64,000 nt of DNA, from the NCBI GenBank assembly GCA_012338575.1, contig GCA_012338575.1_3616.1; one strand, given 5' to 3'. Within the stretch, counting starts at the first letter, position 1; every line of letters starts with the position of its first letter. Made by a program: the position numbers and the translations under genes. This stretch comes from a phage. The notes under the pieces are model-generated. The model was not told the DNA's origin. It worked only from the letters and a program-made list of their open reading frames with translations, and made no database searches. Positions 23,976-63,167 of the stretch are shown in pieces.

Positions 23976-24260
23976 CTACCAGGTTACTGTCAAGTAGGCA
24001 ACCGTGTTATTTTTCTCTGGAGAGATGCCAACAACATCTACCTGCAGACCTCCTGCCCTCAAATCCCCAACAATATGCGGGAAGTAATCTGAGAGATGTG
24101 AGGGTAGATTTATCGAAAATCCGCATCCCAGAAAGCCTGCTAACGCTTTATTTTGTATCTCCCCTACAATCGCATCATAAATGGAGTTAAGCTCGTCAGG
24201 GAGCGTTACAGGACGTTTTAGCGCTAACTGGTGCAACTTGTCCTTAGCACTCATTTTCAT
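23976..24260 (-). CDS. hypothetical protein (about 94 aa)
   Basis: Internal ATG preceded by GAGG chosen as start. Confidence 0.4.
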   Translation of the reverse strand: MKMSAKDKLHQLALKRPVTLPDELNSIYDAIVGEIQNKALAGFLGCGFSINLPSHLSDYFPHIVGDLRAGGLQVDVVGISPEKNNTVAYLTVTW

Positions 24261-24790
24261 TTCAAATCTGCCTCTGGTGGTGCCAACCACATAAACGGCG
24301 GCAAGTCTAAACGGTTTTTCTTATCCCACACAAAATATGCATATGCTTGCCCGTCAGTTCTGCCGTTTGATTGAAATGATGGACGCTTAGATATTGTGAT
24401 CACAGTAGTAGGTGCATTATCAAGCCACCATTCAAATCTGGCTTTGCTTTCCAGAAAATTAAGACGCAAAAGCATAATAACTACGTCAGCATCTTTCAAC
24501 GCCTTGTCTACAAACTCACGAGCCAGGCTGTATGGTGGGTTGGTGATAATACAGTCAACATGGTTGTATTCTGTATTCAGATAGTCAACACCTTCTTGTA
24601 TTTCTCCCCATGCAGATCCTAACGGCATACGGGAGTAGAACACACCTGAGGCACTATTCCTGCAAGGCTCTAAGTAGGTCCAGTCTTCTGGGAACGGAAT
24701 AAGGTCATACAGCCCTTCTGCACACCACTCCGGTGTCACATACTCATCGTAGGCGTTACGTTGTTCATCAGGTTTTCTAGCACAAGTCAT
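24257..24790 (-). CDS. DNA N6-adenine methyltransferase-like (NPPY motif)
   Basis: IITNPPY catalytic motif and upstream acidic SAM-region; 177 aa. Confidence 0.55.
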   Translation of the reverse strand: MTCARKPDEQRNAYDEYVTPEWCAEGLYDLIPFPEDWTYLEPCRNSASGVFYSRMPLGSAWGEIQEGVDYLNTEYNHVDCIITNPPYSLAREFVDKALKDADVVIMLLRLNFLESKARFEWWLDNAPTTVITISKRPSFQSNGRTDGQAYAYFVWDKKNRLDLPPFMWLAPPEADLK

Positions 24791-24807
24791 GCAAATCTCC
24801 AGATCAT

Positions 24808-24830
24808 AAAAGCCCTCCGAAGAGGGCTTT
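24808..24830 (-). terminator. hairpin terminator (possibly bidirectional)
   Basis: AGCCCTC-cgaa-GAGGGCT flanked by AAA and TTT. Confidence 0.5.
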
Positions 24831-24841
24831 AGAATTAATGT

Positions 24842-25891
24842 TTAAGCTTCTTCGACAATTCCTGCACCCAGGATTTTTTCATTGAGCTCTTTTGCTGTTT
24901 TAATAATATTGTCCACCAGACGCTTGCGAGTCTTATCTTTCACCTTAACCTCTTCACCGCCGTTCAGAGTAGTCTTCAATTGAGACAGAATATCCTGAAG
25001 TTCGACGACAGAGAATCGCTGCAGATCTTCTGAAGTAATTTCACCCAGGGCGATCCGGACGGTCTCGCCACTTTCCATCTGCAGATTCAGGAACACAGTG
25101 TGAACATCATCTTTCATACCATTTGCTTTTGCAGACTCAACAGCATGAACTAACTCATCTAAAGATGTGCATTGGTGAACCTCTGGCAGGCCTGCTTCGC
25201 CTAGCACACCCTCTTCATCACTTTTTGCCAAAAGCTTTTTCGGTTTCTGTCCATTCTGAATGCGCTGAATGTTTTCATCGTCCAGAATGATAGCACCAGT
25301 TCTAGATGCCAGCTCTTCTCCATCTAACCACACTTCACCGCCAGCTGTGATGGATGCGATCTCATCTTCTGTCAGCACCCCACCGTAGTATTTTTCGATC
25401 AGGCGTTCAAAACGTTTTTTCCAGTAGCTGACTTGAGTATTCATGTTCACACCGTTACCATAAGTGCCACCTTGATAGTAGTGGAACATAAACTCTGTGT
25501 CCGGAGCCACAGTACGTTCTTTACAACCAAGCCATAAGATTGTTCCAGCAGAGCAGCACATCCCTTCAGCATGTGCAACAACGCTTGCCTGAGACTCTCG
25601 GAATGCCTGCAGATAAGCCATTGCAATGTGCACGCAACCCCCAGGGCTATTGATGATCACCCTAATGCTTTCTTCCGGCTGAGCCATACGGATCGTCTGC
25701 AGACGAGACATATGATCTTGTAAGTCTTCCAAATCGTCGATATAAAGAACGTGGTCAACAACAGGTGTTGGGTAGCTGTATGTTTCCATGATACCGCCCG
25801 GCATACCAAACATTTTATTACTCATAGGTTCGAAACCGTTCTGTTTTTCTTTCATGCCGTGTACCATGGTGCTGCGAGGTGTTAAATTCAT
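24842..25891 (-). CDS. ClpP-family serine protease homolog with long C-terminal extension
   Basis: INSPGGCVHIAMAYLQAF...GMCCSAG...MFHYYQGG aligns with recalled ClpP INSPGGVITAGMSIYD...GQAASMG...MIHQPLGG (Ser and His conserved); 349 aa vs about 207 for ClpP. Confidence 0.65.
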   Translation of the reverse strand: MNLTPRSTMVHGMKEKQNGFEPMSNKMFGMPGGIMETYSYPTPVVDHVLYIDDLEDLQDHMSRLQTIRMAQPEESIRVIINSPGGCVHIAMAYLQAFRESQASVVAHAEGMCCSAGTILWLGCKERTVAPDTEFMFHYYQGGTYGNGVNMNTQVSYWKKRFERLIEKYYGGVLTEDEIASITAGGEVWLDGEELASRTGAIILDDENIQRIQNGQKPKKLLAKSDEEGVLGEAGLPEVHQCTSLDELVHAVESAKANGMKDDVHTVFLNLQMESGETVRIALGEITSEDLQRFSVVELQDILSQLKTTLNGGEEVKVKDKTRKRLVDNIIKTAKELNEKILGAGIVEEA

Positions 25892-25951
25892 GAGAAATCC
25901 TTAATATTGGAAGTTGAAAGCTATTTATTTAAACCTGATTCACATTTACCT

Positions 25952-26263
25952 TTATTTAGCAATCACTATAGAGTACTTACGATTGTCAGAAGCATCACAG
26001 CTCAATGATTGCCAGTCTACCACATACCACGTATCATTGTCAACAATTACTTTATCGCCTGTTCTGTAGCAGGTGCTGCTTTCAATAATCCGAGACTCGA
26101 TAAAGAATCTGTGTCGGCGCTCACGTAGCAACGCTAAGTTGATTATATTACCACCACTGTCCTTGATCCATACATTCTTGGATCCTTTATATGCCAAAAT
26201 TGTCTCGCCGTTATAGACAAACAGGCAGTATATTTTATTCAGTCTCTCTTGTATTGTAGCCAT
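25952..26263 (-). CDS. hypothetical protein (103 aa)
   Basis: ORF. Confidence 0.45.
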   Translation of the reverse strand: MATIQERLNKIYCLFVYNGETILAYKGSKNVWIKDSGGNIINLALLRERRHRFFIESRIIESSTCYRTGDKVIVDNDTWYVVDWQSLSCDASDNRKYSIVIAK

Positions 26264-26361
26264 ACTATCTCCCTCTCTTGTCAGATAATAATATCTAAAG
26301 CTTTACCTGTTTGTCAACAACTGTTTTAGATATTTAAGGGTGGAATAACCACCCTTCTGCA

Positions 26362-27150
26362 TTACTCGGAAACAGGGGTCCAAATATGATTTGCACGATC
26401 CTCAATAAGATTGAGTGCGATCTGACGGCCCAACCCGGAACGAACGACATCGTCTGGACTATCAAAGCTGATCATTCCAACCTCAGGATCTGGATGACGA
26501 GTAAAGAAATCCGTCACCCATGCAAGGCCAGATTTACCAGGGATGTCACGTTGGCTATTATCGCCCATAATTACAAGGGTGGCCTGATCAGAGATCCTTG
26601 TGATAATTGACAACATTTCTTCAGGGTTAGTTTGCTGTGCCTCGTCAATCAGGACAAAGCACCGCTCATCGAAACTACGACCACGAATGCTTTCAACTTC
26701 ACAAATCTCGATACGGCTGTTCTGACCGTCTCCCAGCATTGCGGCAAAAGCACCTTTGCCAACACGACGACAAATCGTGTCCATCATGCTACGAAGGTAA
26801 GGCCAAAGCTTCTGCATTGACGTTCCCGGTTTGTATCCGCTTGATTTTCCGGTCTGTACATAAGGACGTGCAACAATGATCTTATCAATCTCATTCTTAC
26901 GCAGAAGATCACCTGCATATGCAGATGCCATGAATGTCTTACCGGATCCAAACACACCGTTTACAATAATAATCTTACGTGACCCTAGATAATCAAGATA
27001 CTTTTGCTGCTTTTTATTCATCGGTCGGAGAGCTGGAGCGGTGTGCTCTCGTTCGTCAGCAAATTTCTCAGCAGCTTTACGCAGGCGATCAGATTTGCGA
27101 GCCTCTTTAGCTTCATCACGCATGCGTTTTGTTTCTTTAGCTCGACCCAT
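26362..27150 (-). CDS. phoH: PhoH-like ATPase
   Basis: Walker A GVFGSGKT, RGRSFDERCFVLIDEAQ and GDNSQRD motifs typical of PhoH. Confidence 0.7.
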   Translation of the reverse strand: MGRAKETKRMRDEAKEARKSDRLRKAAEKFADEREHTAPALRPMNKKQQKYLDYLGSRKIIIVNGVFGSGKTFMASAYAGDLLRKNEIDKIIVARPYVQTGKSSGYKPGTSMQKLWPYLRSMMDTICRRVGKGAFAAMLGDGQNSRIEICEVESIRGRSFDERCFVLIDEAQQTNPEEMLSIITRISDQATLVIMGDNSQRDIPGKSGLAWVTDFFTRHPDPEVGMISFDSPDDVVRSGLGRQIALNLIEDRANHIWTPVSE

Positions 27151-54668: not shown

Positions 54669-54743
54669 GCCCTGTTAGCTTAGTGGATAAAGCAGCGGCC
54701 TTCTAAGCCGTTGACACTGGTTCGAGTCCAGTACGGGGTGCCA
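54669..54743 (+). tRNA. tRNA-Arg (anticodon TCT)
   Basis: Manually folded cloverleaf: acceptor GCCCTGT/ACGGGGT, D-arm GCTT-AGTGGATA-AAGC, anticodon loop CTTCTAA, T-arm ACTGG-TTCGAGT-CCAGT, CCA encoded. Confidence 0.8.
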
Positions 54744-54873
54744 AGTTCTTTTTAATGTAGCTTACTTTAGCAGAGTAAATCTTCGGCAAGTGGCGGTAAC
54801 CACTTTACCGATACCTCATAGTTAGTGGTGAGAACACTAGCTATTTTAAAAAGAATTTAAATATTAGTATTTA

Positions 54874-54961
54874 GGTGAGTTAATTCCGTAGGGGTAGCGG
54901 GGCAGACTGTAAATCTGTTATCATTGCGATTCGGGTGGTTCGACTCCATCACTCACCACCA
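54874..54961 (+). tRNA. tRNA-Tyr (anticodon GTA), long variable arm
   Basis: Acceptor GGTGAGT/ACTCACC, anticodon loop CTGTAAA, T-loop GGTTCGACTCC, CCA encoded; 85 nt plus CCA. Confidence 0.8.
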
Positions 54962-55075
54962 AATTTATATTTTTAAATGCATAAATCATACAGGTAATGG
55001 CATTGATATTTATCGTCGTTTATACTAGTCACTAACTGCTCGAAAATCAGTGTCATTATCAGTATTGTTTATAAA

Positions 55076-55166
55076 AGAGGGTAGGGAGCAATGGTGCTCA
55101 AGCGGTCTTGAAAACCGTCCCGTTGAGGATGACTCGATGATGGTTCGATTCCATTATCCTCTGCCA
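55076..55166 (+). tRNA. tRNA-Ser (anticodon TGA), long variable arm
   Basis: Acceptor AGAGGGT/ATCCTCT, anticodon loop CTTGAAA, T-arm GATGG-TTCGATT-CCATT, CCA encoded. Confidence 0.75.
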
Positions 55167-55264
55167 TATTGTTGACCTTGTAATTAAGCGAAAGCCGGAA
55201 GCAGAACCGGATTATCAAATGTTACAGTCGTCATCGCCGACTAGCAACATGGTCAACATACTGA

Positions 55265-55361
55265 GCTAGGTAAGCCCTTTGGCAAGGGCGAGGATTTTTA
55301 ATCCTGAAAATAGACGAGGTAGTCGTTGAATACATAGGTGGTTCGATTCCATCACCTAGCA
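55265..55361 (+). other. aberrant tRNA-like element (canonical acceptor, D- and T-arms; anticodon region replaced/expanded)
   Basis: Acceptor GCTAGGT/ACCTAGC, D-arm GCCC-TTTGGCAA-GGGC, T-arm GGTGG-TTCGATT-CCATC, but middle is AGGATT-TTT-AATCCT hairpin plus about 30 extra nt; no encoded CCA. Confidence 0.4.
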
Positions 55362-55368
55362 CCTTTTT

Positions 55369-55444
55369 GCTGATGTAGCACAATTGGTAGTGCAATTGAT
55401 TTGTAATCAATAGGTTGCAGGTTCAAGTCCTGCCATCAGCACCA
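55369..55444 (+). tRNA. tRNA-Thr (anticodon TGT)
   Basis: Acceptor GCTGATG/CATCAGC, D-arm GCAC-AATTGGTA-GTGC, anticodon stem ATTGA/TCAAT loop TTTGTAA, T-arm GCAGG-TTCAAGT-CCTGC, CCA. Confidence 0.85.
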
Positions 55445-55445
55445 T

Positions 55446-55520
55446 GGCCCTGTAGCTGGAAGGTTCAAGCAAGCGACTCATAATCGCCAGACGGTGGTTC
55501 AATTCCACCCAGGGCCACCA
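55446..55520 (+). tRNA. tRNA-Met (anticodon CAT; elongator or Ile2-type)
   Basis: Acceptor GGCCCTG/CAGGGCC, anticodon loop CTCATAA, T-arm GGTGG-TTCAATT-CCACC, CCA; paired 1:72 argues against initiator. Confidence 0.75.
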
Positions 55521-55531
55521 AATAGTAAATA

Positions 55532-55608
55532 CTCCGCGTAGCTCAGCTTGGTAGAGCGCCTGATTTGGGATCAGGAGGTCGAGTGTTCGAATCACTCCGT
55601 GGAGACCA
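55532..55608 (+). tRNA. tRNA-Pro (anticodon TGG)
   Basis: Acceptor CTCCGCG/CGTGGAG, D-arm GCTC-AGCTTGGTA-GAGC, anticodon stem CCTGA/TCAGG loop TTTGGGA, T-arm GAGTG-TTCGAAT-CACTC, CCA. Confidence 0.85.
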
Positions 55609-56428: not shown

Positions 56429-56712
56429 GAGTTGCTACACTGTTTATTGCGTGCTTGTTATTATGTGGGTGTGCAACCAGTGTTGAGAAAGAATACAAGA
56501 TTGACCCTCCAGATGTAGGAAGGTTGATTGTTAAACCCCCGGAAGGTGCCATGAAACCACCTGCTAAAGCTATACCTTTAAAGAAAGGTGCGCCAGATGC
56601 GGTGAATTCTGGCATTATGAGGGATAATAATCTGTCTTGTAGCAATGATAGAGCTAAATTGATCATTTTGCAAGACTATATTAGAACACTGTTTCCAAAG
56701 GAGAGAGGTTAA
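56425..56712 (+). CDS. o-spanin (Rz1-like outer-membrane lipoprotein)
   Basis: Signal peptide MRVATLFIACLLLCGC with lipobox Cys; Pro-rich mature part; ATGA overlap with i-spanin. Confidence 0.55.
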   Translation: MRVATLFIACLLLCGCATSVEKEYKIDPPDVGRLIVKPPEGAMKPPAKAIPLKKGAPDAVNSGIMRDNNLSCSNDRAKLIILQDYIRTLFPKERG

Positions 56713-57137
56713 TGTCTAAGATTTACGGACCGTGTTCTGAAAAGCAGAAGATGATCCTCGAAAACGATGCAGATATTTTGGTAATCGGCGGTGCCGCAGG
56801 GTCTGGCAAGTCGTTCCTTTTGCAGTTGATGCCGCTTAAAATTATTGATGACCCCCACAGCTCTGTGGTTATGTTCCGAAGAACAACTCCACAGTTGGAG
56901 GGTGAGGGTGGACTATGGCCTAAAGCAGTAGCTATTTATAGTGATCTGCCTGAAAACATTAAGCCAAAGTTCAGAGAGAAGGATCATAAGTTCATTTTTC
57001 CACGGTTTGATCCTAACACTGGTAAGTGGGATAGAAGCAAAAAGGGAGCTGTTGTAAAATACTGCCACATGGAGTATGTACAAGATAAGCTTAACCATCA
57101 AGGGCTTGAGTACACCATGGTTTGCTTCGATGAGGGT
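56712..57137 (+). CDS. terminase large subunit, exon 1 (ATPase Walker A/B)
   Basis: Walker A GGAAGSGKS, Walker B MVCFDEG; reading frame hits stop at 57138-57140 inside intron. Confidence 0.75.
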
Positions 57138-57456
57138 TAATTTGTAGCTCTCGTAAAACCTCCCTAATTGCGGGGAAATCTTTATTATTGACACCACCAA
57201 CCTGTTATGGTAACATGATAGAGGCTTCGAAGAGAGATCGAAGGTATGGTAACAGTGTGTTAATTTAGATAATCCGCAGCGAAGCATCCGAGGGGATGAA
57301 CGTTCAACGACTAGTCGAAAGACGTAGAATCAAGCGATTCGAAACGGGAGGGTAAGCGGTTGTTGTCGCTTATAAGATATAGTCTGGTCTGCATGGAGAC
57401 ATGCAGCTGCCTGAAAATGGCGGGGCAAGACTAGCGACCTTGCCCGAACATAAACG
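57138..57456 (+). mobile_element. group I intron (ORF-less, td-like) interrupting terminase large subunit gene
   Basis: 319 nt without ORF; begins TAATTTG after exon T, ends ...GAACATAAACG; contains AGTCTGGTCTGCATGGAGACATGCAGCTG, AACGACTA, CGAAACG strings recalled from T4 td intron; splicing 57137/57457 is in frame. Confidence 0.75.
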
Positions 57457-58578
57457 ACACAATTCGAATGGGAGCAGATAGACTACCTGATGTCTCGTCT
57501 GCGATCTCAGTCAAAGTATCCATCAAGGATGGTTATCAGCTGTAACCCCGATTCAGAACACATGCTTGCCAAACTGGTTAGATGGTGGTTGGACGATGAA
57601 GGGTATCCAGATCCGGAGAAATGCGGTAAGAAAAGATATTTTATCCGACGCGACGGTGAATTTATTTGGGGAGACTCTAAGGAAGAGTTGATAGAGAAAT
57701 ACACCACGGTTAACGGACTGGGTGTAGAGATCAAGCCAAGACCGTTGTCATTCTCGTTCATAGGCGCAACAATATTCGATAATCCTGTCTGTTTGAGAGA
57801 CAACCCAGAATACCTTGCTTTCCTTGAAGGCCTGCCAGAACTTGAAAAAGCCCAGCTTCTTCATGGCAACTGGTTTGCAAAGCCTGAGGGTGCAAACTAT
57901 TTTCAAAGATCTTTCCTTCGTGATGCCGATAGAGTACCCCTTGGATCAGTATCTTGCAGGGCATGGGATAAGGCAGGAACCGAGAGAACTTCCGGTAATA
58001 AATTTCCTGACTTTACCGCCAGTGTTAAGGTAAGTAAAGATAGCGACGGCTTTTATTACCTGTCCGGTGATTATTGTCCTGAGAACGTGGATGACGGGAG
58101 GTATTCCACAGGTCTGGAAGGTAAGTTCTGTAAAAAGGCTGGTGAACGAGATGTGATCATCAGGAAACAGGCGCAGTTTGATGGTGATGATTGTATAATC
58201 GTATTCTCTGTGGACCCCGGTCAGGCAGGTAAGAGTGAGTTCTTAACATCCTCCAGATCCTTGCTTGCCGAAGGGTTTAGGGTTGAAGAAGACCCAATGC
58301 CTTCCAACAAATCTAAACTGACAAGGTTCTCACCTTTTGCCAATCTTGCCCAACAAGGAATGGTTAGGATTGTAAAATCCAGTTTCCATCCTGATACTCT
58401 GGAAGCATTTCTGACTGAACTTGAAAAATTCAACGGGGAAAGATCAACATTTAACAGGAAAGACGACTGGGCCGACTGTGTAGCTTCTGCGATTAATTTC
58501 CTGGAGAAAGAGGAGGTAGCACTTCCTTGTGTGATTCCATCAATCTCATCACCTTCTATGTTCAAGCGTTTTATCTAA
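57457..58578 (+). CDS. terminase large subunit, exon 2 (nuclease domain)
   Basis: Frame open from 57457 (TQFEWEQIDYLMSRL...); 373 aa C-terminal part; followed by terminator. Confidence 0.7.
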   Translation, partial: TQFEWEQIDYLMSRLRSQSKYPSRMVISCNPDSEHMLAKLVRWWLDDEGYPDPEKCGKKRYFIRRDGEFIWGDSKEELIEKYTTVNGLGVEIKPRPLSFSFIGATIFDNPVCLRDNPEYLAFLEGLPELEKAQLLHGNWFAKPEGANYFQRSFLRDADRVPLGSVSCRAWDKAGTERTSGNKFPDFTASVKVSKDSDGFYYLSGDYCPENVDDGRYSTGLEGKFCKKAGERDVIIRKQAQFDGDDCIIVFSVDPGQAGKSEFLTSSRSLLAEGFRVEEDPMPSNKSKLTRFSPFANLAQQGMVRIVKSSFHPDTLEAFLTELEKFNGERSTFNRKDDWADCVASAINFLEKEEVALPCVIPSISSPSMFKRFI

Positions 58579-58680: not shown

Positions 58681-60237
58681 GTGTCCAAAAAGAACCGCAG
58701 GAAACACAACGCCACAGCCAAAACTGTGAATAAATCTGGGAACGCAGGCGCACCAACTCATAATGTTCGTATGAGTGAGATCGGTTCTGGCGCACTTTCC
58801 CAAATTATGGCAGAATCGCAATCTATGATGGTTGAGGAATTGCGTTGGCCTCAGCTGATTGCCACAGTGGAGACTATGAAATGTGATTCCACAGTTGCTA
58901 CTGCCTTAGATACAAAATATGTTTTCATCACGAAAGCATTCAATGATTTTAAGATCCTTTATAATGTTAAAAGTGAAGACTCTAAGAAAGCTGCCGAGCT
59001 TATAGAGTATTCTTTGCGTAATTTGGCAAACCAACAAACTCTTCGAGATATTGCAAGAAGCGCAGCTACCTTTAACGAGTATGGTTTTTCACTGTTTGAG
59101 AAAGTATACCGCAGAGAGAAAGAAGGTAAATATGCCGGGATGCTTCTTATTGATAAAATTGCATTCCGACCTCAGGCCAGTTTGTCCAGATCAGAGCCGT
59201 TTGTCTTTGACAAGAATAGTAGAACACTGACAGGTATTTATCAGTCACCTAATGCATTTCTAAACACTCAGAATGCACGCTGGGCTGGACCTCTTGCTGC
59301 AATGCCTTCAAAAGGCTTTAATGAGCCTGAAATTTTCATCCCTGCTAAAAAGCTTATGCTCATGACCCTGTCAGGAACAGAATCTAACCCTGCAGGTGTG
59401 TCACCTATGATAGGTTGCTACAGATCTTTCCGTGAGAAAGTTCTGATTGAAAACCTTGAGGTTGTTGGCTGTTCCAAAGACCTTGGTGGTGTGCTTGAGC
59501 TGAAAATTCCTTCCAATATTTTGAACAAGGCCAGCATTGACCCGAATTCAATGGAAGGGAGAATGGTTGCAGATCTTATGCTTGACGCAGCAAATGCCCA
59601 TAGTGGGGAGCAAAGTTTCTTTATACTTCCGTCTGATAGAGATAAGTCTGGTAAAGAGCTTTACTCCATGACCCTGAAGGGGGTTGATGGTATGGGTAAG
59701 CAGTATTCGACTAAAGATTTGATTGATGCCCGTAAGAAGGCGATTCTTGACCGTTTCGGTGCTGGCTTTATTAACCTCGGTAACGATAACGTTGGATCCT
59801 TCTCTCTGTCTGAGTCAAAACAGTCTATCCATGGTCATTTTGTTCAGCGTGATATAGATATTATCACTGAAGCCTTCAATAAGGATCTTATTCCACAGCT
59901 TCTGGCATTGAATGGTATCATCCTTGAAGATGATGATATGCCTAAACTGAAACCTGGTCTGATTGAAGAGGTGGACATGGAGAGCTTCTCCAAGTTTGTC
60001 CAGAGGATCGGTGCTGTAGGTTACTTGCCAAAAACTCCTGCAGTAATTAATAAGATTCTTGAAGTAGGCGGGTTTGATGAAAGATTTGACGAGGACATGG
60101 ATCAGGAAGAGCTGATGAAGCTCTTGGGCCAGGACATCAGTAGGGCTGGTGATGGAATGGCTGCAGGATCCACTGGTAACGGCACTTCTAAGATGTCATC
60201 AACCAGAGATAATTCCATATCCAACATGGAAAATTAA
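58681..60237 (+). CDS. portal protein (GTG start)
   Basis: 518-aa ORF immediately after terminase with SD GAGGGG; size and position typical of portal. Confidence 0.6.
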   Translation: MSKKNRRKHNATAKTVNKSGNAGAPTHNVRMSEIGSGALSQIMAESQSMMVEELRWPQLIATVETMKCDSTVATALDTKYVFITKAFNDFKILYNVKSEDSKKAAELIEYSLRNLANQQTLRDIARSAATFNEYGFSLFEKVYRREKEGKYAGMLLIDKIAFRPQASLSRSEPFVFDKNSRTLTGIYQSPNAFLNTQNARWAGPLAAMPSKGFNEPEIFIPAKKLMLMTLSGTESNPAGVSPMIGCYRSFREKVLIENLEVVGCSKDLGGVLELKIPSNILNKASIDPNSMEGRMVADLMLDAANAHSGEQSFFILPSDRDKSGKELYSMTLKGVDGMGKQYSTKDLIDARKKAILDRFGAGFINLGNDNVGSFSLSESKQSIHGHFVQRDIDIITEAFNKDLIPQLLALNGIILEDDDMPKLKPGLIEEVDMESFSKFVQRIGAVGYLPKTPAVINKILEVGGFDERFDEDMDQEELMKLLGQDISRAGDGMAAGSTGNGTSKMSSTRDNSISNMEN

Positions 60238-60304: not shown

Positions 60305-60724
60305 ATGCCACAGGAAGAAATGATTTCCTACGAAATCATCTACGAACCTGACACTAAAGATGCTCACGGTGAGTGGATGAGTAAAGACACCATCAAAAAG
60401 GCTAAAGATAATTGGGACGCAGCATACGCCGCAGGCCTAGTTTCTGAAAACCTTTTTCACTTGACCTCTACAGATGCTTTCACTATTGAAAAGACGTGGA
60501 TTCAAGAAGAGTTTGATGTTGTAGTAATTGGCACTGAGCAGGTCATCAAGGCTGGCTCTTGGGTTGCTAAAGTTAAATACAATAATCCTGAACTATGGGA
60601 AGCTAAGAAGGCTGGCATTGTTGGTGGCCTAAGCATTCAGGCAACAGGTAATGTTGATGAAGAAACTGGTGAAATTACCAACGTAAACTTCGGGATCAGT
60701 GTTGTAGAAGAGGGCAATGAATAA
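60305..60724 (+). CDS. head morphogenesis protein (function unclear)
   Basis: ATG 60305 after GGGGAA; between portal and scaffold genes. Confidence 0.45.
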   Translation: MPQEEMISYEIIYEPDTKDAHGEWMSKDTIKKAKDNWDAAYAAGLVSENLFHLTSTDAFTIEKTWIQEEFDVVVIGTEQVIKAGSWVAKVKYNNPELWEAKKAGIVGGLSIQATGNVDEETGEITNVNFGISVVEEGNE

Positions 60725-61701
60725 TGTCTGAAAAAACGATTACTATTAAAGAGAAGGGGATTGCCCTGTGCCACAAGGCGCAAGGCTATAGCGCTAACAA
60801 TAGACCTGTATCTCTTTTGATGAAGAGTGATCTTAAGCCTGAGCAGTTAACAGACGATATTGTTAAGGCACTTCGCCAAGTTACTGTGGAGCTTAGTTTT
60901 GAAGAATACCTGCGTCGTTTCTTCGATATGTGGTATGATGATGCTAAAGCACTTGCACACATGCTTGGTTTTGAGATTGAAGAGGAGGCTTGGGCTAAAG
61001 AGCATCCTGATTGGGAATGGGCGCAAGCTGACGCAGAGTCTTGTATTGCATGGCTGGAAGAGCGTTGTGATAACGTGACCATTCATAAGGCTGCAAAAGA
61101 AGGCAAGCAGCTTAGTGTGGTAGATCAGTACAGCCTGTTAAAAACACAACAGATTTTTGAACAAGTAACCGCTGATCTCTTCGATAAAGAAGGGAACCTG
61201 ATCAAGGCGGTACAGGAACCTGCTGAGGTGGATAAAACTACCGAGGTGGATGATGTTGCAAAATCCGCAAATACCGAGGAGAATCCGGTGGACGTAACCA
61301 AAACTAAAGAGTATCTGGATCTGCTGAAGCAAGTAGAAGAGCTGAAAGCAACCCAGAGTAAAGCTGAAGAAATCATCAAGGCCCAGGTTGAAGTTGAAAA
61401 AGCTAAAATGCTGACTAAGGCTCAAGCTTTAAGCTTTGTTGGTGAAGAAGATCACGCAACCCTGGTTGACTTCATGCTGGAAAAAGCTAACGAACCTATC
61501 GTAGCTATGCTGGAGAAAGCTCAAGCAAAAATTGAAGAGCTGGAAGCAGAGGTGCATAAAACTAAAGAAGAGTTTGCCACCACTGAACATGGTAATGATG
61601 GCGAACCTGTTGTGGATGATATTGCAAAATCCGCAGAAGAAATTCTTGCTGAAAACGTTGCAAAAGCACTTGCTCGTGCACGTGCAGAATCTAACAAATA
61701 A
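60724..61701 (+). CDS. putative scaffolding protein (acidic coiled-coil, internal VDD(V/I)AKSA repeat)
   Basis: Ala/Glu/Lys-rich helical sequence; located directly upstream of decoration and capsid genes. Confidence 0.5.
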   Translation: MSEKTITIKEKGIALCHKAQGYSANNRPVSLLMKSDLKPEQLTDDIVKALRQVTVELSFEEYLRRFFDMWYDDAKALAHMLGFEIEEEAWAKEHPDWEWAQADAESCIAWLEERCDNVTIHKAAKEGKQLSVVDQYSLLKTQQIFEQVTADLFDKEGNLIKAVQEPAEVDKTTEVDDVAKSANTEENPVDVTKTKEYLDLLKQVEELKATQSKAEEIIKAQVEVEKAKMLTKAQALSFVGEEDHATLVDFMLEKANEPIVAMLEKAQAKIEELEAEVHKTKEEFATTEHGNDGEPVVDDIAKSAEEILAENVAKALARARAESNK

Positions 61702-61721: not shown

Positions 61722-62111
61722 ATGATTACCGCTCAATATTCTGATATCGTGCTCGGCAAAGTTGATTCTAGCGATGCTGGCTACAATTTTAAAGAGATGG
61801 AAATTACACTGACAGAGCACCATCATGCTGGTACTGTTGTAACAAAAACTGGCACTATCGCTAACGATGATGGCTCAGACGTTTATGGCGTTCTCGTAGA
61901 CCGAGCTCTGGTAAAAGATGCAGGAAAAGTTCATCTCGCTGAGCCTCTGCAAACAGGTCAGAAATATAAACTGGTTGTTGCAGTTCATGGTGTTACCTTT
62001 GCAAAAGATAAGCTGCTGGGGTCTAACGGTGAAGCAGCTAAGCAGGCTGTTCTTGAAAAGCTGGAAGCTCTGGGTAACAAAGTTCACGTCCAGACTCTTG
62101 GTGAAGAGTAA
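61722..62111 (+). CDS. putative head decoration protein
   Basis: 129-aa ORF between scaffold and major capsid genes (lambda D-like position); highly expressed codon usage. Confidence 0.4.
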   Translation: MITAQYSDIVLGKVDSSDAGYNFKEMEITLTEHHHAGTVVTKTGTIANDDGSDVYGVLVDRALVKDAGKVHLAEPLQTGQKYKLVVAVHGVTFAKDKLLGSNGEAAKQAVLEKLEALGNKVHVQTLGEE

Positions 62112-62159: not shown

Positions 62160-63167
62160 ATGATTACTCGTAAAGATGAATTTGGCATTGTTGATTTAGG
62201 TGCTACTCTGGACCTTGTTCCGCGTCAATTCCGCCTGATTACTGGTATGGATCTGTTCGAAACTCGTCTCGGCACCTCAACAATTGCTCAGATCGAGCGT
62301 GTTGATGAAGTTGTAACAGACATTCCGGCACGCCGTCGTGGTGGTGAGCGTAACTACGTTGGTAATGAACGTGCTCAGGTTAAAAACCTGAACATCCCGT
62401 TCTTCCCTCTGGATAAAGGCATCACTGCTGCAGATGTTCAGAACTTCCGTCGTTACTTCACTCCTGATGCTCCGAAAACTGTTCAGGACGTAGTAACCCG
62501 CGTTGTTCGCCGTATCCGTGTTTCCCATGAAGCACTGCGTGAGAAAGCGCTGTTCCAGGCTATTCTGGGTAAATCCTATGCACCTGGTGACGCTACCTGC
62601 CAGTATGACTACTACACTCTGTGGGGTGTGGATCAGAAGTCTGTTGAGATTGACCCTGCAAAAGCAGATCAGGACCCTATGGAGGTTCTGGAAGAAGCTC
62701 GTCTGCACATCGCACTGCAAGCTGGTGATAACGCAGCTGGCTATCGCATCGTAGCCCTGTGCTCACCGGAGTTCTTCAGTGCTGTTACCCATCACCCGCT
62801 GGTAGAACTGGCATACACCTATTACGGCTCTGCTCAGGAACCTCTGCGTCGCCGTCTGGGTGCGGGTGGTCAAGACAGCGTATACCGTGTGTTTGAGCAT
62901 AAAGGTATCACCTTTATCGAAGATATCTCTGGCAATATTCCTAAGAAAGAAGCTCGCATTCTGCCGATGGGTATTGATCAGATGTTCCAGCTGCACTTTG
63001 CTCCGGCAGACGATGTTAACGAAGCAAACACTCCAGCACAGGAACTGTACATGTGGTATAAACACTCTGCATACCTGCGTGAAGAGAAGATTGAATCTGA
63101 AACTTCCATGCTGGCAGTTAACACCCGCCCAGAGCTGGTTGTTAAAGCAACTCTGAAAGGTGACTAA
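62160..63167 (+). CDS. major capsid protein (lambda E-like family likely)
   Basis: 335 aa (lambda E about 341); strongly biased high-expression codons (CTG, CGT, GGT); followed by the strongest terminator in the window. Confidence 0.6.
   Translation: MITRKDEFGIVDLGATLDLVPRQFRLITGMDLFETRLGTSTIAQIERVDEVVTDIPARRRGGERNYVGNERAQVKNLNIPFFPLDKGITAADVQNFRRYFTPDAPKTVQDVVTRVVRRIRVSHEALREKALFQAILGKSYAPGDATCQYDYYTLWGVDQKSVEIDPAKADQDPMEVLEEARLHIALQAGDNAAGYRIVALCSPEFFSAVTHHPLVELAYTYYGSAQEPLRRRLGAGGQDSVYRVFEHKGITFIEDISGNIPKKEARILPMGIDQMFQLHFAPADDVNEANTPAQELYMWYKHSAYLREEKIESETSMLAVNTRPELVVKATLKGD

Follow-up and report, generated by a model that had tools for sequence, protein, structure and literature searches.

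The closest known relatives of the gene considered here are, of course, its orthologues in the vequintaviruses, the rV5-like phages of E. coli. One of these, rV5 gp122, has carried the annotation of a ClpP subunit since 2013 (rV5 Table S3), and the database label of the group (PHROG 5410) reads "ClpP ATP-dependent protease subunit." PHROG 5410 is the long form of PHROG 1827, whose short forms occur in KVP40, ICP1, Otagovirus, Pakpunavirus, and the Rheinheimera Barba phages. Among curated families, the closest by score is that of the head-maturation proteases (NF045542; PHROGs 1684, 94, 2976, 133), which have a ClpP-like core with its Ser and His. Cellular ClpP itself (MEROPS S14; TIGR00493; E. 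coli ClpP, PDB 1TYF and 6PPE) shares with the phage protein the fold and the catalytic Ser and His. The ClpP-fold peptidase is widespread, being present in many large lytic phages; 952 phage records match the family, and a literature search for experiments on auxiliary phage ClpP found genome annotations only.

The window analyzed here, a stretch of 64,000 nucleotides, is that of a Vequintavirus (~97% identical). It carries the orthologue of rV5 gp122, a reading frame for 349 amino acids with a ribosome-binding site (AAGGA) 6 nt ahead of its ATG (Table 1). The gene is already annotated, and it is non-structural. Vequintavirus orthologues, gp122 included, are 97-99% identical to the window protein, have the same length of 349 amino acids, and lie between the same neighbors (phoH, a 103-aa ORF, a methyltransferase) behind the same promoter, P121. 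Nothing of substance sets gp122 apart; it is this gene as carried by a sister genome. The reading that we favor, with a probability of about 0.7, is that the product is a serine peptidase of ClpP fold, specific to phages and non-structural, and separate from the XkdF-type protease of capsid maturation. It is most likely a cytoplasmic enzyme that is not part of the virion.

Table 1. Features of the ClpP-like locus and of the head module in the window.
Feature	Position	Strand	Basis
Putative adenine DNA methyltransferase, directly downstream of ClpP-like gene	24257..24790	(-)	Weak Pfam; annotation in relatives
ClpP-fold serine peptidase gene, stop codon included	24842..25891	(-)	ORF, Pfam CLP_protease, PHROG 5410, Foldseek, rV5 Table S3
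C-terminal extension, residues 214-349	24845..25252	(-)	Orphan domain
ClpP-fold core, residues 46-213	25253..25756	(-)	pLDDT ~90, invariant S114 and H137
Glu186 at ClpP Asp171 position	25334-25336	(-)	Within ClpP-fold core
Catalytic His137	25481-25483	(-)	Within ClpP-fold core
Catalytic Ser114	25550-25552	(-)	Within ClpP-fold core
N-terminal tail, residues 1-45	25757..25891	(-)	Predicted disordered; no alignment to ClpP N-terminus
103-aa ORF between phoH and ClpP-like gene	25952..26263	(-)	ORF list; hypothetical in relatives
Sigma-70-type promoter TTGACA-N18-TATTAT	26288..26317	(-)	11/12 consensus
PhoH-like P-loop ATPase gene	26362..27150	(-)	Pfam PhoH E=6e-47; synteny survey
Portal protein	58681..60237	(+)	Pfam Portal_Mu, PHROG 113
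XkdF-type (Peptidase_S78_2) putative prohead protease, 139 aa	60305..60724	(+)	PF14550, PHROG 3017
Acidic 325-aa protein, orthologue of rV5 gp62	60724..61701	(+)	Position; PHROG 2970
Head decoration protein	61722-62111	(+)	Just upstream of MCP; PHROG 29 and 2680 (with MCP)
Major capsid protein (MCP), lambda gpE-type, without delta domain	62160..63167	(+)	Pfam Phage_cap_E E=4e-40

That the protein is a homolog of ClpP, as the initial annotation had proposed, is borne out by Pfam, by the ClpP chains in the PDB, and by superposition of an AlphaFold model. Pfam PF00574 (CLP_protease) matches residues 59-168 at E=2e-12, with 47.8 bits against a gathering threshold of 20.2. A search of PDB sequences finds ClpP chains at E~1e-7, and PHROG 5410 matches over the full length at E=4e-155. 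The AF2 model of the core, which has a pLDDT of ~90, retrieves more than 1000 ClpP chains in Foldseek (best E=1.9e-10) and superposes on ClpP with a target-normalized TM of ~0.70 over ~165-172 aligned columns. The monomer model also has a long handle-like helix at residues 147-169.

The active-site Ser and His, likewise said to be retained, are indeed there. Ser114 and His137 align with Ser97 and His122 of ClpP, and all 40 of the 40 family members compared have both. The motifs that surround them, GxCSAGT and MFHxYQGG, are absolutely invariant in the family as well. In the column of the triad acid, located by secondary-structure register together with alignment, the window protein has Glu186, 35 of 40 relatives have Gln, and the KVP40 and ICP1 homologues have Asp. 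Asp190, conserved in 39 of 40, was considered for the role of triad acid; the register, however, puts it at a Ser/Thr helix N-cap, in the position after the D171-R-F-L strand of ClpP rather than at D171. With the Ser-His pair kept and Glu standing at the Asp position, the protein would, judged from its sequence, probably be an active peptidase. Because the acid is Gln in most relatives, this activity may be weak or may depend on a partner.

The two ends of the protein fall outside the ClpP-like core. Residues 1-42 have a pLDDT of ~30 and are predicted to be disordered. This tail carries a clade-conserved FGMPG motif; F28 and G29 are conserved at 90% or above, and Y40 and P41 are invariant. At the other end, the C-terminal extension, earlier put at 140 amino acids, exists and comprises ~136 after the core ends near residue 213. 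Here, an acidic variable linker is followed by a beta-hairpin and two conserved helices, with F293, E297, and R322 invariant. A profile of the extension, searched against 1.84 billion representatives, found its own family, fragments, one marginal match, and nothing else. By this measure, it is an orphan domain, and it may contain a nucleic-acid-binding motif of the helix-extended-helix kind.

The Gln found at the triad acid in 35 of the 40 relatives, together with the conserved FG motif of the disordered tail, invites the view that the protein acts mainly through binding, with catalysis secondary. It might, for example, plug the pockets of host ClpP with its N-terminal FGMPG or poison host ClpP rings, and so stabilize phage proteins. 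The FG motif loosely resembles the IGF loops of ClpX, and phages are known to inhibit a host protease, as T4 PinA and T7 gp4.5 do with Lon. A motif as short as FG carries, of course, very little information, and FGMPG is absent from the short-form homologues. Further, the absolute invariance of Ser114, His137, and the motifs around them argues for selection on catalysis. A non-catalytic modulator is therefore regarded as very improbable, and an active peptidase is still preferred.

If the protein cuts, it might do so as a genuine ClpP subunit, as the database name "ATP-dependent Clp protease proteolytic subunit" suggests. Its ClpP-type rings, either alone or mixed with host ClpP, would then dock the ClpX or ClpA of the host and redirect ATP-dependent proteolysis. 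The ClpP fold with its long handle helix would allow this, as would the Ser-His-acid arrangement, which is kept here and which, in KVP40 and ICP1, includes the canonical Asp. Heteromeric ClpP1P2 rings provide a precedent, some with a degenerate triad (Listeria ClpP1).

The surface on which the unfoldases dock tells a different story. In cellular ClpP, the pocket that receives the IGF/IGL loops of ClpX and ClpA consists of L23, L48, F49, A52, Y60, Y62, F82, I90, M92, F112, L114, and L189 (bioRxiv 10.1101/820209). Seven of these positions can be mapped by sequence alignment, and hydrophobicity is gone at six of them (Y60 to R77, F82 to E99, I90 to H107, M92 to E109, F112 to T127, L114 to A129), the seventh being Y62I. 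Five of the six replacements are polar or charged residues that are invariant in the phage family (R77, E99, H107, E109, T127). The region of L48, F49, and A52 corresponds to a five-residue deletion, helix B being shorter by five residues, and where ClpP has L189 and R192, in its C-terminal strand, the phage protein has the extension. The N-terminal axial gate and helix A are also missing, the first modeled element being the strand at residues 46-51. The curated models agree. Against TIGR00493 (clpP), the protein scores 33.2 bits, far under the cut-off of 308.6; other curated ClpP models give 21-39 bits against cut-offs of 228-361.

With the docking pocket and the N-terminal gate lost, the protein most likely works without host Clp unfoldases, to the extent that this can be read from an alignment. 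A genuine ClpP subunit is thus an unlikely account of it. The label "ATP-dependent Clp protease subunit" is probably misleading, given the loss of the surface on which unfoldases dock, and the doubt over "ATP-dependent" should be useful to those who annotate ClpP-like proteins of phages.

A different role was suggested by the position of the gene, which lies, as the initial annotation stated, far from the head module (~31 kb away, on the opposite strand). No prohead protease had been recognized near the portal, and two readings were offered: the ClpP-like protein might be the maturation protease, displaced from its usual slot, or it might act on host proteins. Under the first of these, the protein would mature the capsid, with its C-terminal extension targeting the procapsid. 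ClpP-related proteases are, of course, a common family of prohead proteases, and some head proteases have C-terminal targeting or scaffold-like extensions, lambda gpC and HK97 gp4 among them. Displacement of a prohead protease was reportedly described by Liu and Mushegian in 2004. Further, the best NCBIfam match and several PHROG matches of the window protein are to head-maturation families. Its bit score is higher for the head-maturation model NF045542 (60.3) than for the cellular ClpP model PRK12553 (39), and the match to PHROG 1684, "head maturation protease" (E=5e-23), reaches residue 261, past the ClpP core. The NF045542 score is, however, half of that model's cut-off of 120.

The slot between portal and scaffold is, moreover, already taken. 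The protein encoded at 60305-60724 matches Pfam PF14550 at E=8.7e-18, with 65 bits against a gathering threshold of 24, over positions 10-123 of the 126 in the model; Pfam names this family "putative phage serine protease XkdF," its protease activity being "putative." PHROG 3017, a family of "head maturation protease," also recognizes the protein (E=7e-14), and its gene lies between those for the portal and for the scaffold-like protein. The view that no recognizable prohead protease sits near the portal was therefore wrong. A sequence search of this protein against the PDB found no match. The rV5 record describes its orthologue, gp063, as similar to a Bacillus PBSX protein, while RefSeq names the rV5 orthologue "DNA methyltransferase." The RefSeq label looks like an error, and this too is worth the attention of annotators.

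Mass spectrometry of rV5 points in the same direction. The sample, which consisted of virions and not of proheads, yielded 19 proteins, and gp122 is not among them, which still leaves slight room for a passing role in the prohead. The portal, gp64, was detected in virions. So was gp62, whose orthologue in the window would be the scaffold, with 2 spectra against 2030 for the MCP. Peptides of the rV5 MCP begin at residue 5, just past a tryptic site; its N-terminus is therefore intact, without processing.

Transcription would place the gene elsewhere as well. The promoter in the window, which is equal to P121 of rV5 (rV5 Table S4), drives the ClpP-like gene and, ahead of it, the 103-aa ORF. In rV5, the late genes (27-66) form a separate unit with a T4-late-like motif; the ClpP-like gene belongs to the unit 82-163, and genes of nucleotide metabolism and replication surround it. 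From the promoters, its expression would fall in early to middle infection. Among its immediate neighbors, the 103-aa ORF has no match in Pfam, and the putative methyltransferase has weak, sub-threshold matches to the EcoRI_methylase and Dam families. Homologues of the ClpP-like gene lie in replication clusters in other phages also, including Barba18A and P26059A, each of which has a ClpP-like gene plus a separate protease in its head module.

The displaced maturation protease is contradicted by the XkdF-type protein in the slot, by the intact N-terminus of the rV5 MCP, and by the failure to detect gp122 in virions; a sigma-70-type promoter in a non-late unit does not favor it either. These are largely the grounds for rejection that the initial annotation itself had set. 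It must be considered scarcely credible that the ClpP-like protein matures the capsid. The second reading fared better, as action on host proteins fits both the non-late promoter and the neighborhood. The head module is conventional, and capsid maturation therefore needs no rethinking.

A survey of other phages shows what kind of neighborhood this is. Across diverse phages, phoH lies within 2.6 kb upstream of the ClpP-like gene, on the same strand, at 42 of 72 loci, and it lies downstream at none of 63. The upstream linkage is present in 12 of 17 sequence clusters. In ICP1 and Otagovirus, the ClpP-like gene follows phoH, and in Otagovirus the two genes overlap. Rheinheimera phage Barba18A has the same methylase-Clp-phoH trio (PMC6715854). 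About 40% of the loci have no adjacent phoH; KVP40 is one of these, and its ClpP-like gene lies between frd and uvsX. In 14 lineages, the neighbors include PhoH, RNR, gp32, gp59, RNase H, ligase, and nucleases, with PhoH the top neighbor family in 7. The 25 most frequent of the 59 neighbor families matched in these lineages include no portal, capsid, terminase, or Clp-unfoldase family; only generic P-loop ATPase models come near the last, and their member counts track PhoH. The rV5 "ATPase" gp004, examined as a Clp unfoldase, gave generic P-loop matches only, all sub-threshold. A literature search for an earlier mention of the phoH-ClpP linkage found genome annotations only. The recurrent order of phoH and ClpP-like gene offers a concrete handle on what viral phoH might do in infection.

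One might go further, and suppose that the upstream PhoH-like ATPase is the partner of the ClpP-like peptidase in an unrecognized ATP-dependent module for degradation or remodeling. The directional synteny just described, the overlap in Otagovirus, and the rank of PhoH among neighbors would all suit such a partnership, and the loss of the canonical unfoldase pocket leaves room for another partner. PhoH/YbeZ proteins have, further, been reported as hexamers. Synteny may, however, reflect the shared ancestry of a block of early genes rather than physical interaction, and such a partnership is hard to square with the ~40% of loci that have no phoH beside the ClpP-like gene. Further, PhoH-family proteins are tied to RNA metabolism, not to protein unfolding. 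The partnership is doubtful for these reasons. Its fullest form, in which PhoH and the ClpP-like protein make up an ATPase-coupled protease or ribonucleoprotein-degrading machine, independent of ClpX and ClpA and targeted by the C-terminal domain of the Vequintavirinae, is likewise no better than a long shot. If true, a PhoH-ClpP module would supply a first testable function for viral phoH, which is in wide use as a marker.

The reading that we prefer remains a non-structural peptidase apart from the head. Host RNA polymerase would transcribe the gene from the sigma-70-type promoter, within a non-late block, as part of a cassette of phoH, the small ORF, the ClpP-like gene, and the methyltransferase; the order from phoH to ClpP recurs in many distant phages. 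The peptidase would act in the cytoplasm, in early to middle infection, on other proteins, be they of the host or of the phage. Its clade-specific C-terminal domain may supply recognition of a substrate or partner, or assembly. Capsid maturation would be left to the XkdF-type protease between portal and scaffold.

In a separate context, the Vequintavirinae are reported to be detected by a CBASS system that a protease triggers (bioRxiv 10.64898/2026.03.04.709575). Two proteases are encoded by these phages, and either may be the trigger.

How, then, does the window protein compare with the systems described at the outset? With cellular ClpP it has in common, besides fold and catalytic pair, the INSPGG motif of the oxyanion loop, the Gly-rich substrate strand, and the long handle helix. 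The two are only ~20% identical, the Asp171 of ClpP is Glu or Gln in the phage family, and cellular ClpP lacks the domain of ~136 amino acids that the phage protein has added at its C-terminus. The head-maturation proteases are closer to it by bit score, and some of them have C-terminal additions of their own, such as scaffold or capsid fusions. Unlike them, the window gene lies outside the head module, is not under late control, and has a product undetected in rV5 virions. Phage P26059A shows the same pairing of an XkdF protease with an auxiliary ClpP. The short forms of PHROG 1827 have a core 25-40% identical to that of the window protein, with Ser and His retained, and they too lie in clusters for replication and nucleotide metabolism, often right after phoH and, in the loci examined, not beside head genes. 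They differ in being mostly 200-260 amino acids long, without the conserved C-terminal module and without FGMPG. Those of KVP40 and ICP1 have the canonical triad Asp, unlike the window protein, and the ICP1 protein has a long C-terminal region of its own, which the profile of the extension does not detect.

The initial annotation saw no recognisable prohead protease next to the portal, took the slot between portal and scaffold to hold a 140-aa protein of unknown fold, and offered the ClpP-like gene as a possible displaced maturation protease. The protein in the slot can, however, be recognised. Its Pfam match is PF14550 (Peptidase_S78_2, "putative phage serine protease XkdF"), with E=8.7e-18 and 65 bits where the gathering score is 24; the match covers positions 10-123 of the 126-position model. 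A second match is to PHROG 3017, "head maturation protease". Thus, the canonical slot is filled by a protease family that is typical of it. The rV5 record likens the orthologue, gp063, to a Bacillus PBSX protein. The major capsid protein (MCP) belongs to the lambda-gpE-type family (Pfam Phage_cap_E).

Positions of the features discussed, in window coordinates
Feature	Coordinates	Strand	Remark
phoH-to-ClpP-like gene order	24257-27150	-	
ClpP-like gene	24842..25891	-	ORF, 349 aa
N-x-FG-MPG motif	25808-25822	-	residues 24-28 onward of ClpP-like protein
Sigma-70 promoter	26317-26288	-	TTGACA-N18-TATTAT, near-consensus
PhoH	26362-27150	-	Pfam E=6e-47
tRNA cluster	54669-55605	+	six genes, Rfam RF00005
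Head module, terminase and portal through MCP	56.7-63.2 kb	+	
Large terminase, first exon	about 56712-57140	+	
Group I intron	57128-57406	+	Rfam RF00028, 83.6 bits, E=9e-20
Large terminase, second exon	about 57490-58578	+	
Portal	58681-60237	+	
XkdF-type putative protease	60305-60724	+	PF14550; between portal and scaffold-like gene
Scaffold-like gene	60724-61701	+	

Two observations belong beside these. The RefSeq product name of rV5 gp063 (NC_011041 55883-56455; 5884-6456 in the compared rV5 locus, L003) is "DNA methyltransferase", which is also the label of PHROG 1530. The XkdF-type protein matches that profile (E=1.7e-51) only over the C-terminal third of its 379 positions, and the name looks like a propagated misannotation. 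Further, a group I intron splits the large terminase gene; the ORF listing shows no homing-endonuclease ORF of at least 90 aa within it. The rV5 gene is annotated as a join of three pieces and contains an HNH endonuclease.

Mass spectrometry of rV5 virions bears on the same question. The analysis, which was of low sensitivity and used virions rather than proheads, identified 19 proteins: gp61, 60, 64, 53, 52, 133, 79, 152, 82, 34, 237, 41, 62, 235, 106, 37, 1, 27 and 228 (Table S5, PMC3606486). Neither gp122, the orthologue of the ClpP-like protein, nor gp63 is among these 19, and the mass of gp122, 38541, appears nowhere in Table S5. The scaffold-like gp62 is present as a trace, with 2 spectra against 2030 for the MCP. 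Capsid processing was part of the test that the initial annotation had itself named, and in rV5 virions the MCP is not trimmed at its N-terminus, because its peptides start at residue 5, right behind the tryptic site R4 (coverage 83%). For gp133, which the rV5 paper counts as "one of the predominant" proteins of the virion, the basis is two spectra, and one of these is from a non-tryptic peptide of 5 residues. Quality is similarly low for several of the 19 identifications, and the list is therefore to be taken cautiously. With a putative PF14550 protease in the head slot, an untrimmed MCP, and gp122 missing from the virion list, the ClpP-like gene is not supported as a displaced maturation protease. 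Its product may instead act on other proteins.

What the initial annotation said of the gene itself held. It lies ~31 kb from the head module on the opposite strand, with a ribosome-binding site (AAGGA) 6 nt before its ATG. Its product is a ClpP homologue by Pfam CLP_protease (47.8 bits; cut-off 20.2), by PHROG 5410 "ATP-dependent protease" over its full length (E=4e-155), and by PDB ClpP chains (E~1e-7). An AlphaFold2 model made from 28 family members, with pLDDT ~90 over the core (residues 45-215), superposes on ClpP structures with a target-normalised TM of ~0.70. The INSPGG motif anchors an alignment block free of gaps, in which Ser97 and His122 of E. coli ClpP pair with Ser114 and His137; all 40 homologues (40 of 40) keep both residues.

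Beyond the ClpP core, which stops at about residue 213, come ~136 more residues. These form a variable acidic linker, then a beta-hairpin and two helices, modelled with moderate confidence (pLDDT 65), in which F293, E297 and R322 are invariant. A Pfam search of the extension gave nothing significant, and its profile, run against 1.84 billion representative proteins, returned only its own family, fragments, and one marginal match. The extension is an orphan, clade-specific module that may recognise substrates or partners, or take part in assembly or in nucleic-acid tethering.

The gene was already known and annotated. The region around it is 97-97.5% identical in DNA to more than 100 genomes of Vequintavirus (rV5-like) E. 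coli myophages, where it carries the label "ATP-dependent Clp protease proteolytic subunit" or "ClpP ATP-dependent protease subunit"; some records have it as a hypothetical protein instead. In the type phage, rV5, gp122 (349 aa, 38.5 kDa) is listed as "ClpP (ATP-dependent) protease subunit" (Table S3; Kropinski et al., 2013, PMC3606486). Nineteen GenBank records (MG0656xx) titled "Campylobacter phage", with C. jejuni or Campylobacter as host, are ~97% identical to this region, which suggests mislabelled or contaminated isolates. The window's tRNA cluster, upstream of the lysis and terminase genes, corresponds to the rV5 tRNA block.

The "ATP-dependent" label is another matter. The curated NCBIfam model for clpP, TIGR00493, gives 33 bits against a cut-off of 308.6; the best NCBIfam model, "head maturation protease, ClpP-related", gives 60, below its cut-off of 120. 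When the residues of the ClpA/ClpX loop-docking pocket, as given with the ClpAP structure (bioRxiv 10.1101/820209), are aligned, the changes from ClpP are Y60R, Y62I, F82E, I90H, M92E, F112T and L114A, and R77, E99, H107, E109 and T127 of the ClpP-like protein are invariant across the family. Compared with ClpP, helix B is 5 residues shorter and the L48/F49/A52 region is gone. So are the N-terminal gate and helix A, with a disordered tail of ~45 residues carrying a clade-specific FGMPG in their place. At the aligned position of the triad acid, KVP40 and ICP1 have Asp and the window protein has Glu; of 40 relatives of the long form, the one with the extension, 35 have Gln. The rejection by the curated models, the replaced pocket, and the loss in helix B and gate leave the label unsupported. 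The protein is a ClpP at the level of the superfamily, not of the functional family. The most economical reading is an active Ser-His peptidase that would work without ClpX or ClpA from the host. Within the otherwise variable, disordered long-form tail, F28 and G29 of the N-x-FG-MPG motif are at least 90% conserved; short-form homologues lack the motif.

A 103-aa ORF lies directly upstream of the gene and is preceded by the sigma-70 promoter, which the rV5 authors predicted as P121 (PMC3606486); no terminator separates this ORF from the ClpP-like gene. The same authors placed rV5 genes 82-163 in a transcription unit apart from the late genes, 27-66, where there is a T4-late-like motif (PMC3606486). 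Besides PhoH, the neighbours are a putative adenine methyltransferase, NrdG and NrdD. In a relative, phage Mangalyan (L001 11940-14860, corresponding to the window upstream of 28185), the anaerobic ribonucleotide reductase NrdD is annotated as a pair of CDS that flank an HNH endonuclease gene, which suggests another intron or intein-type insertion.

Homologues were found by tblastn in 952 phage records. The long form is limited to Vequintavirinae and close kin; a short form of 200-260 aa occurs in KVP40, Pakpunavirus, Otagovirus, T5-like phages, Rheinheimera phages and others. The ICP1 protein matches over the same core but has 326 aa and a C-terminal region of its own. The KVP40 gene is flanked by frd and uvsX. 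KVP40 is T4-like, and T4-type phages have a gp21-type head protease.

The gene comes directly behind phoH in ICP1 and in Otagovirus UNO-G1W1. Among these two, KVP40 and 80 IMG/VR loci, 72 have enough upstream sequence, and in 42 of them a PhoH-like gene on the same strand stands at most 2.6 kb upstream; downstream it stands in 0 of 63. The linkage holds in 12 of 17 ClpP-like sequence clusters. The recurrent order, seen in the window and in loci L005-L086, is phoH followed by 0-2 small ORFs and the ClpP-like gene, in many cases with a methylase next, and it spans Vibrio, Pseudomonas, Rheinheimera, enterobacterial and uncultured marine phages. When 135 neighbouring genes at most 3 kb away, drawn from 14 dereplicated lineages, were scanned with Pfam, PhoH was commonest (7/14 lineages), then RNR, gp32, gp59, RNase H, ligase and nucleases; portal, capsid, terminase and Clp-unfoldase families were not among the 25 most frequent of the 59 families matched.

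Three points were not found in the literature searched: that the unfoldase-docking surface is lost, that the extension is an orphan, and that phoH-to-ClpP-like synteny is strict and directional. The last of these motivates the hypothesis of a PhoH-coupled protease module, the more interesting reading, though one of low probability. According to a preprint (bioRxiv 10.64898/2026.03.04.709575), EcCdnG is a protease-sensing CBASS that restricts Vequintavirinae Bas48-59, with a loop specificity for these phages that differs from that for T4 gp21. The XkdF-type and ClpP-like proteases are two candidate triggers in these phages.

The same division of labour as in the window is found in two other phages. 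In Rheinheimera phage Barba18A, methylase, CLP_protease and phoH lie side by side, while portal and MCP have a separate peptidase between them (PMC6715854); phage P26059A carries XkdF, ClpP and phoH (PMC5964084).
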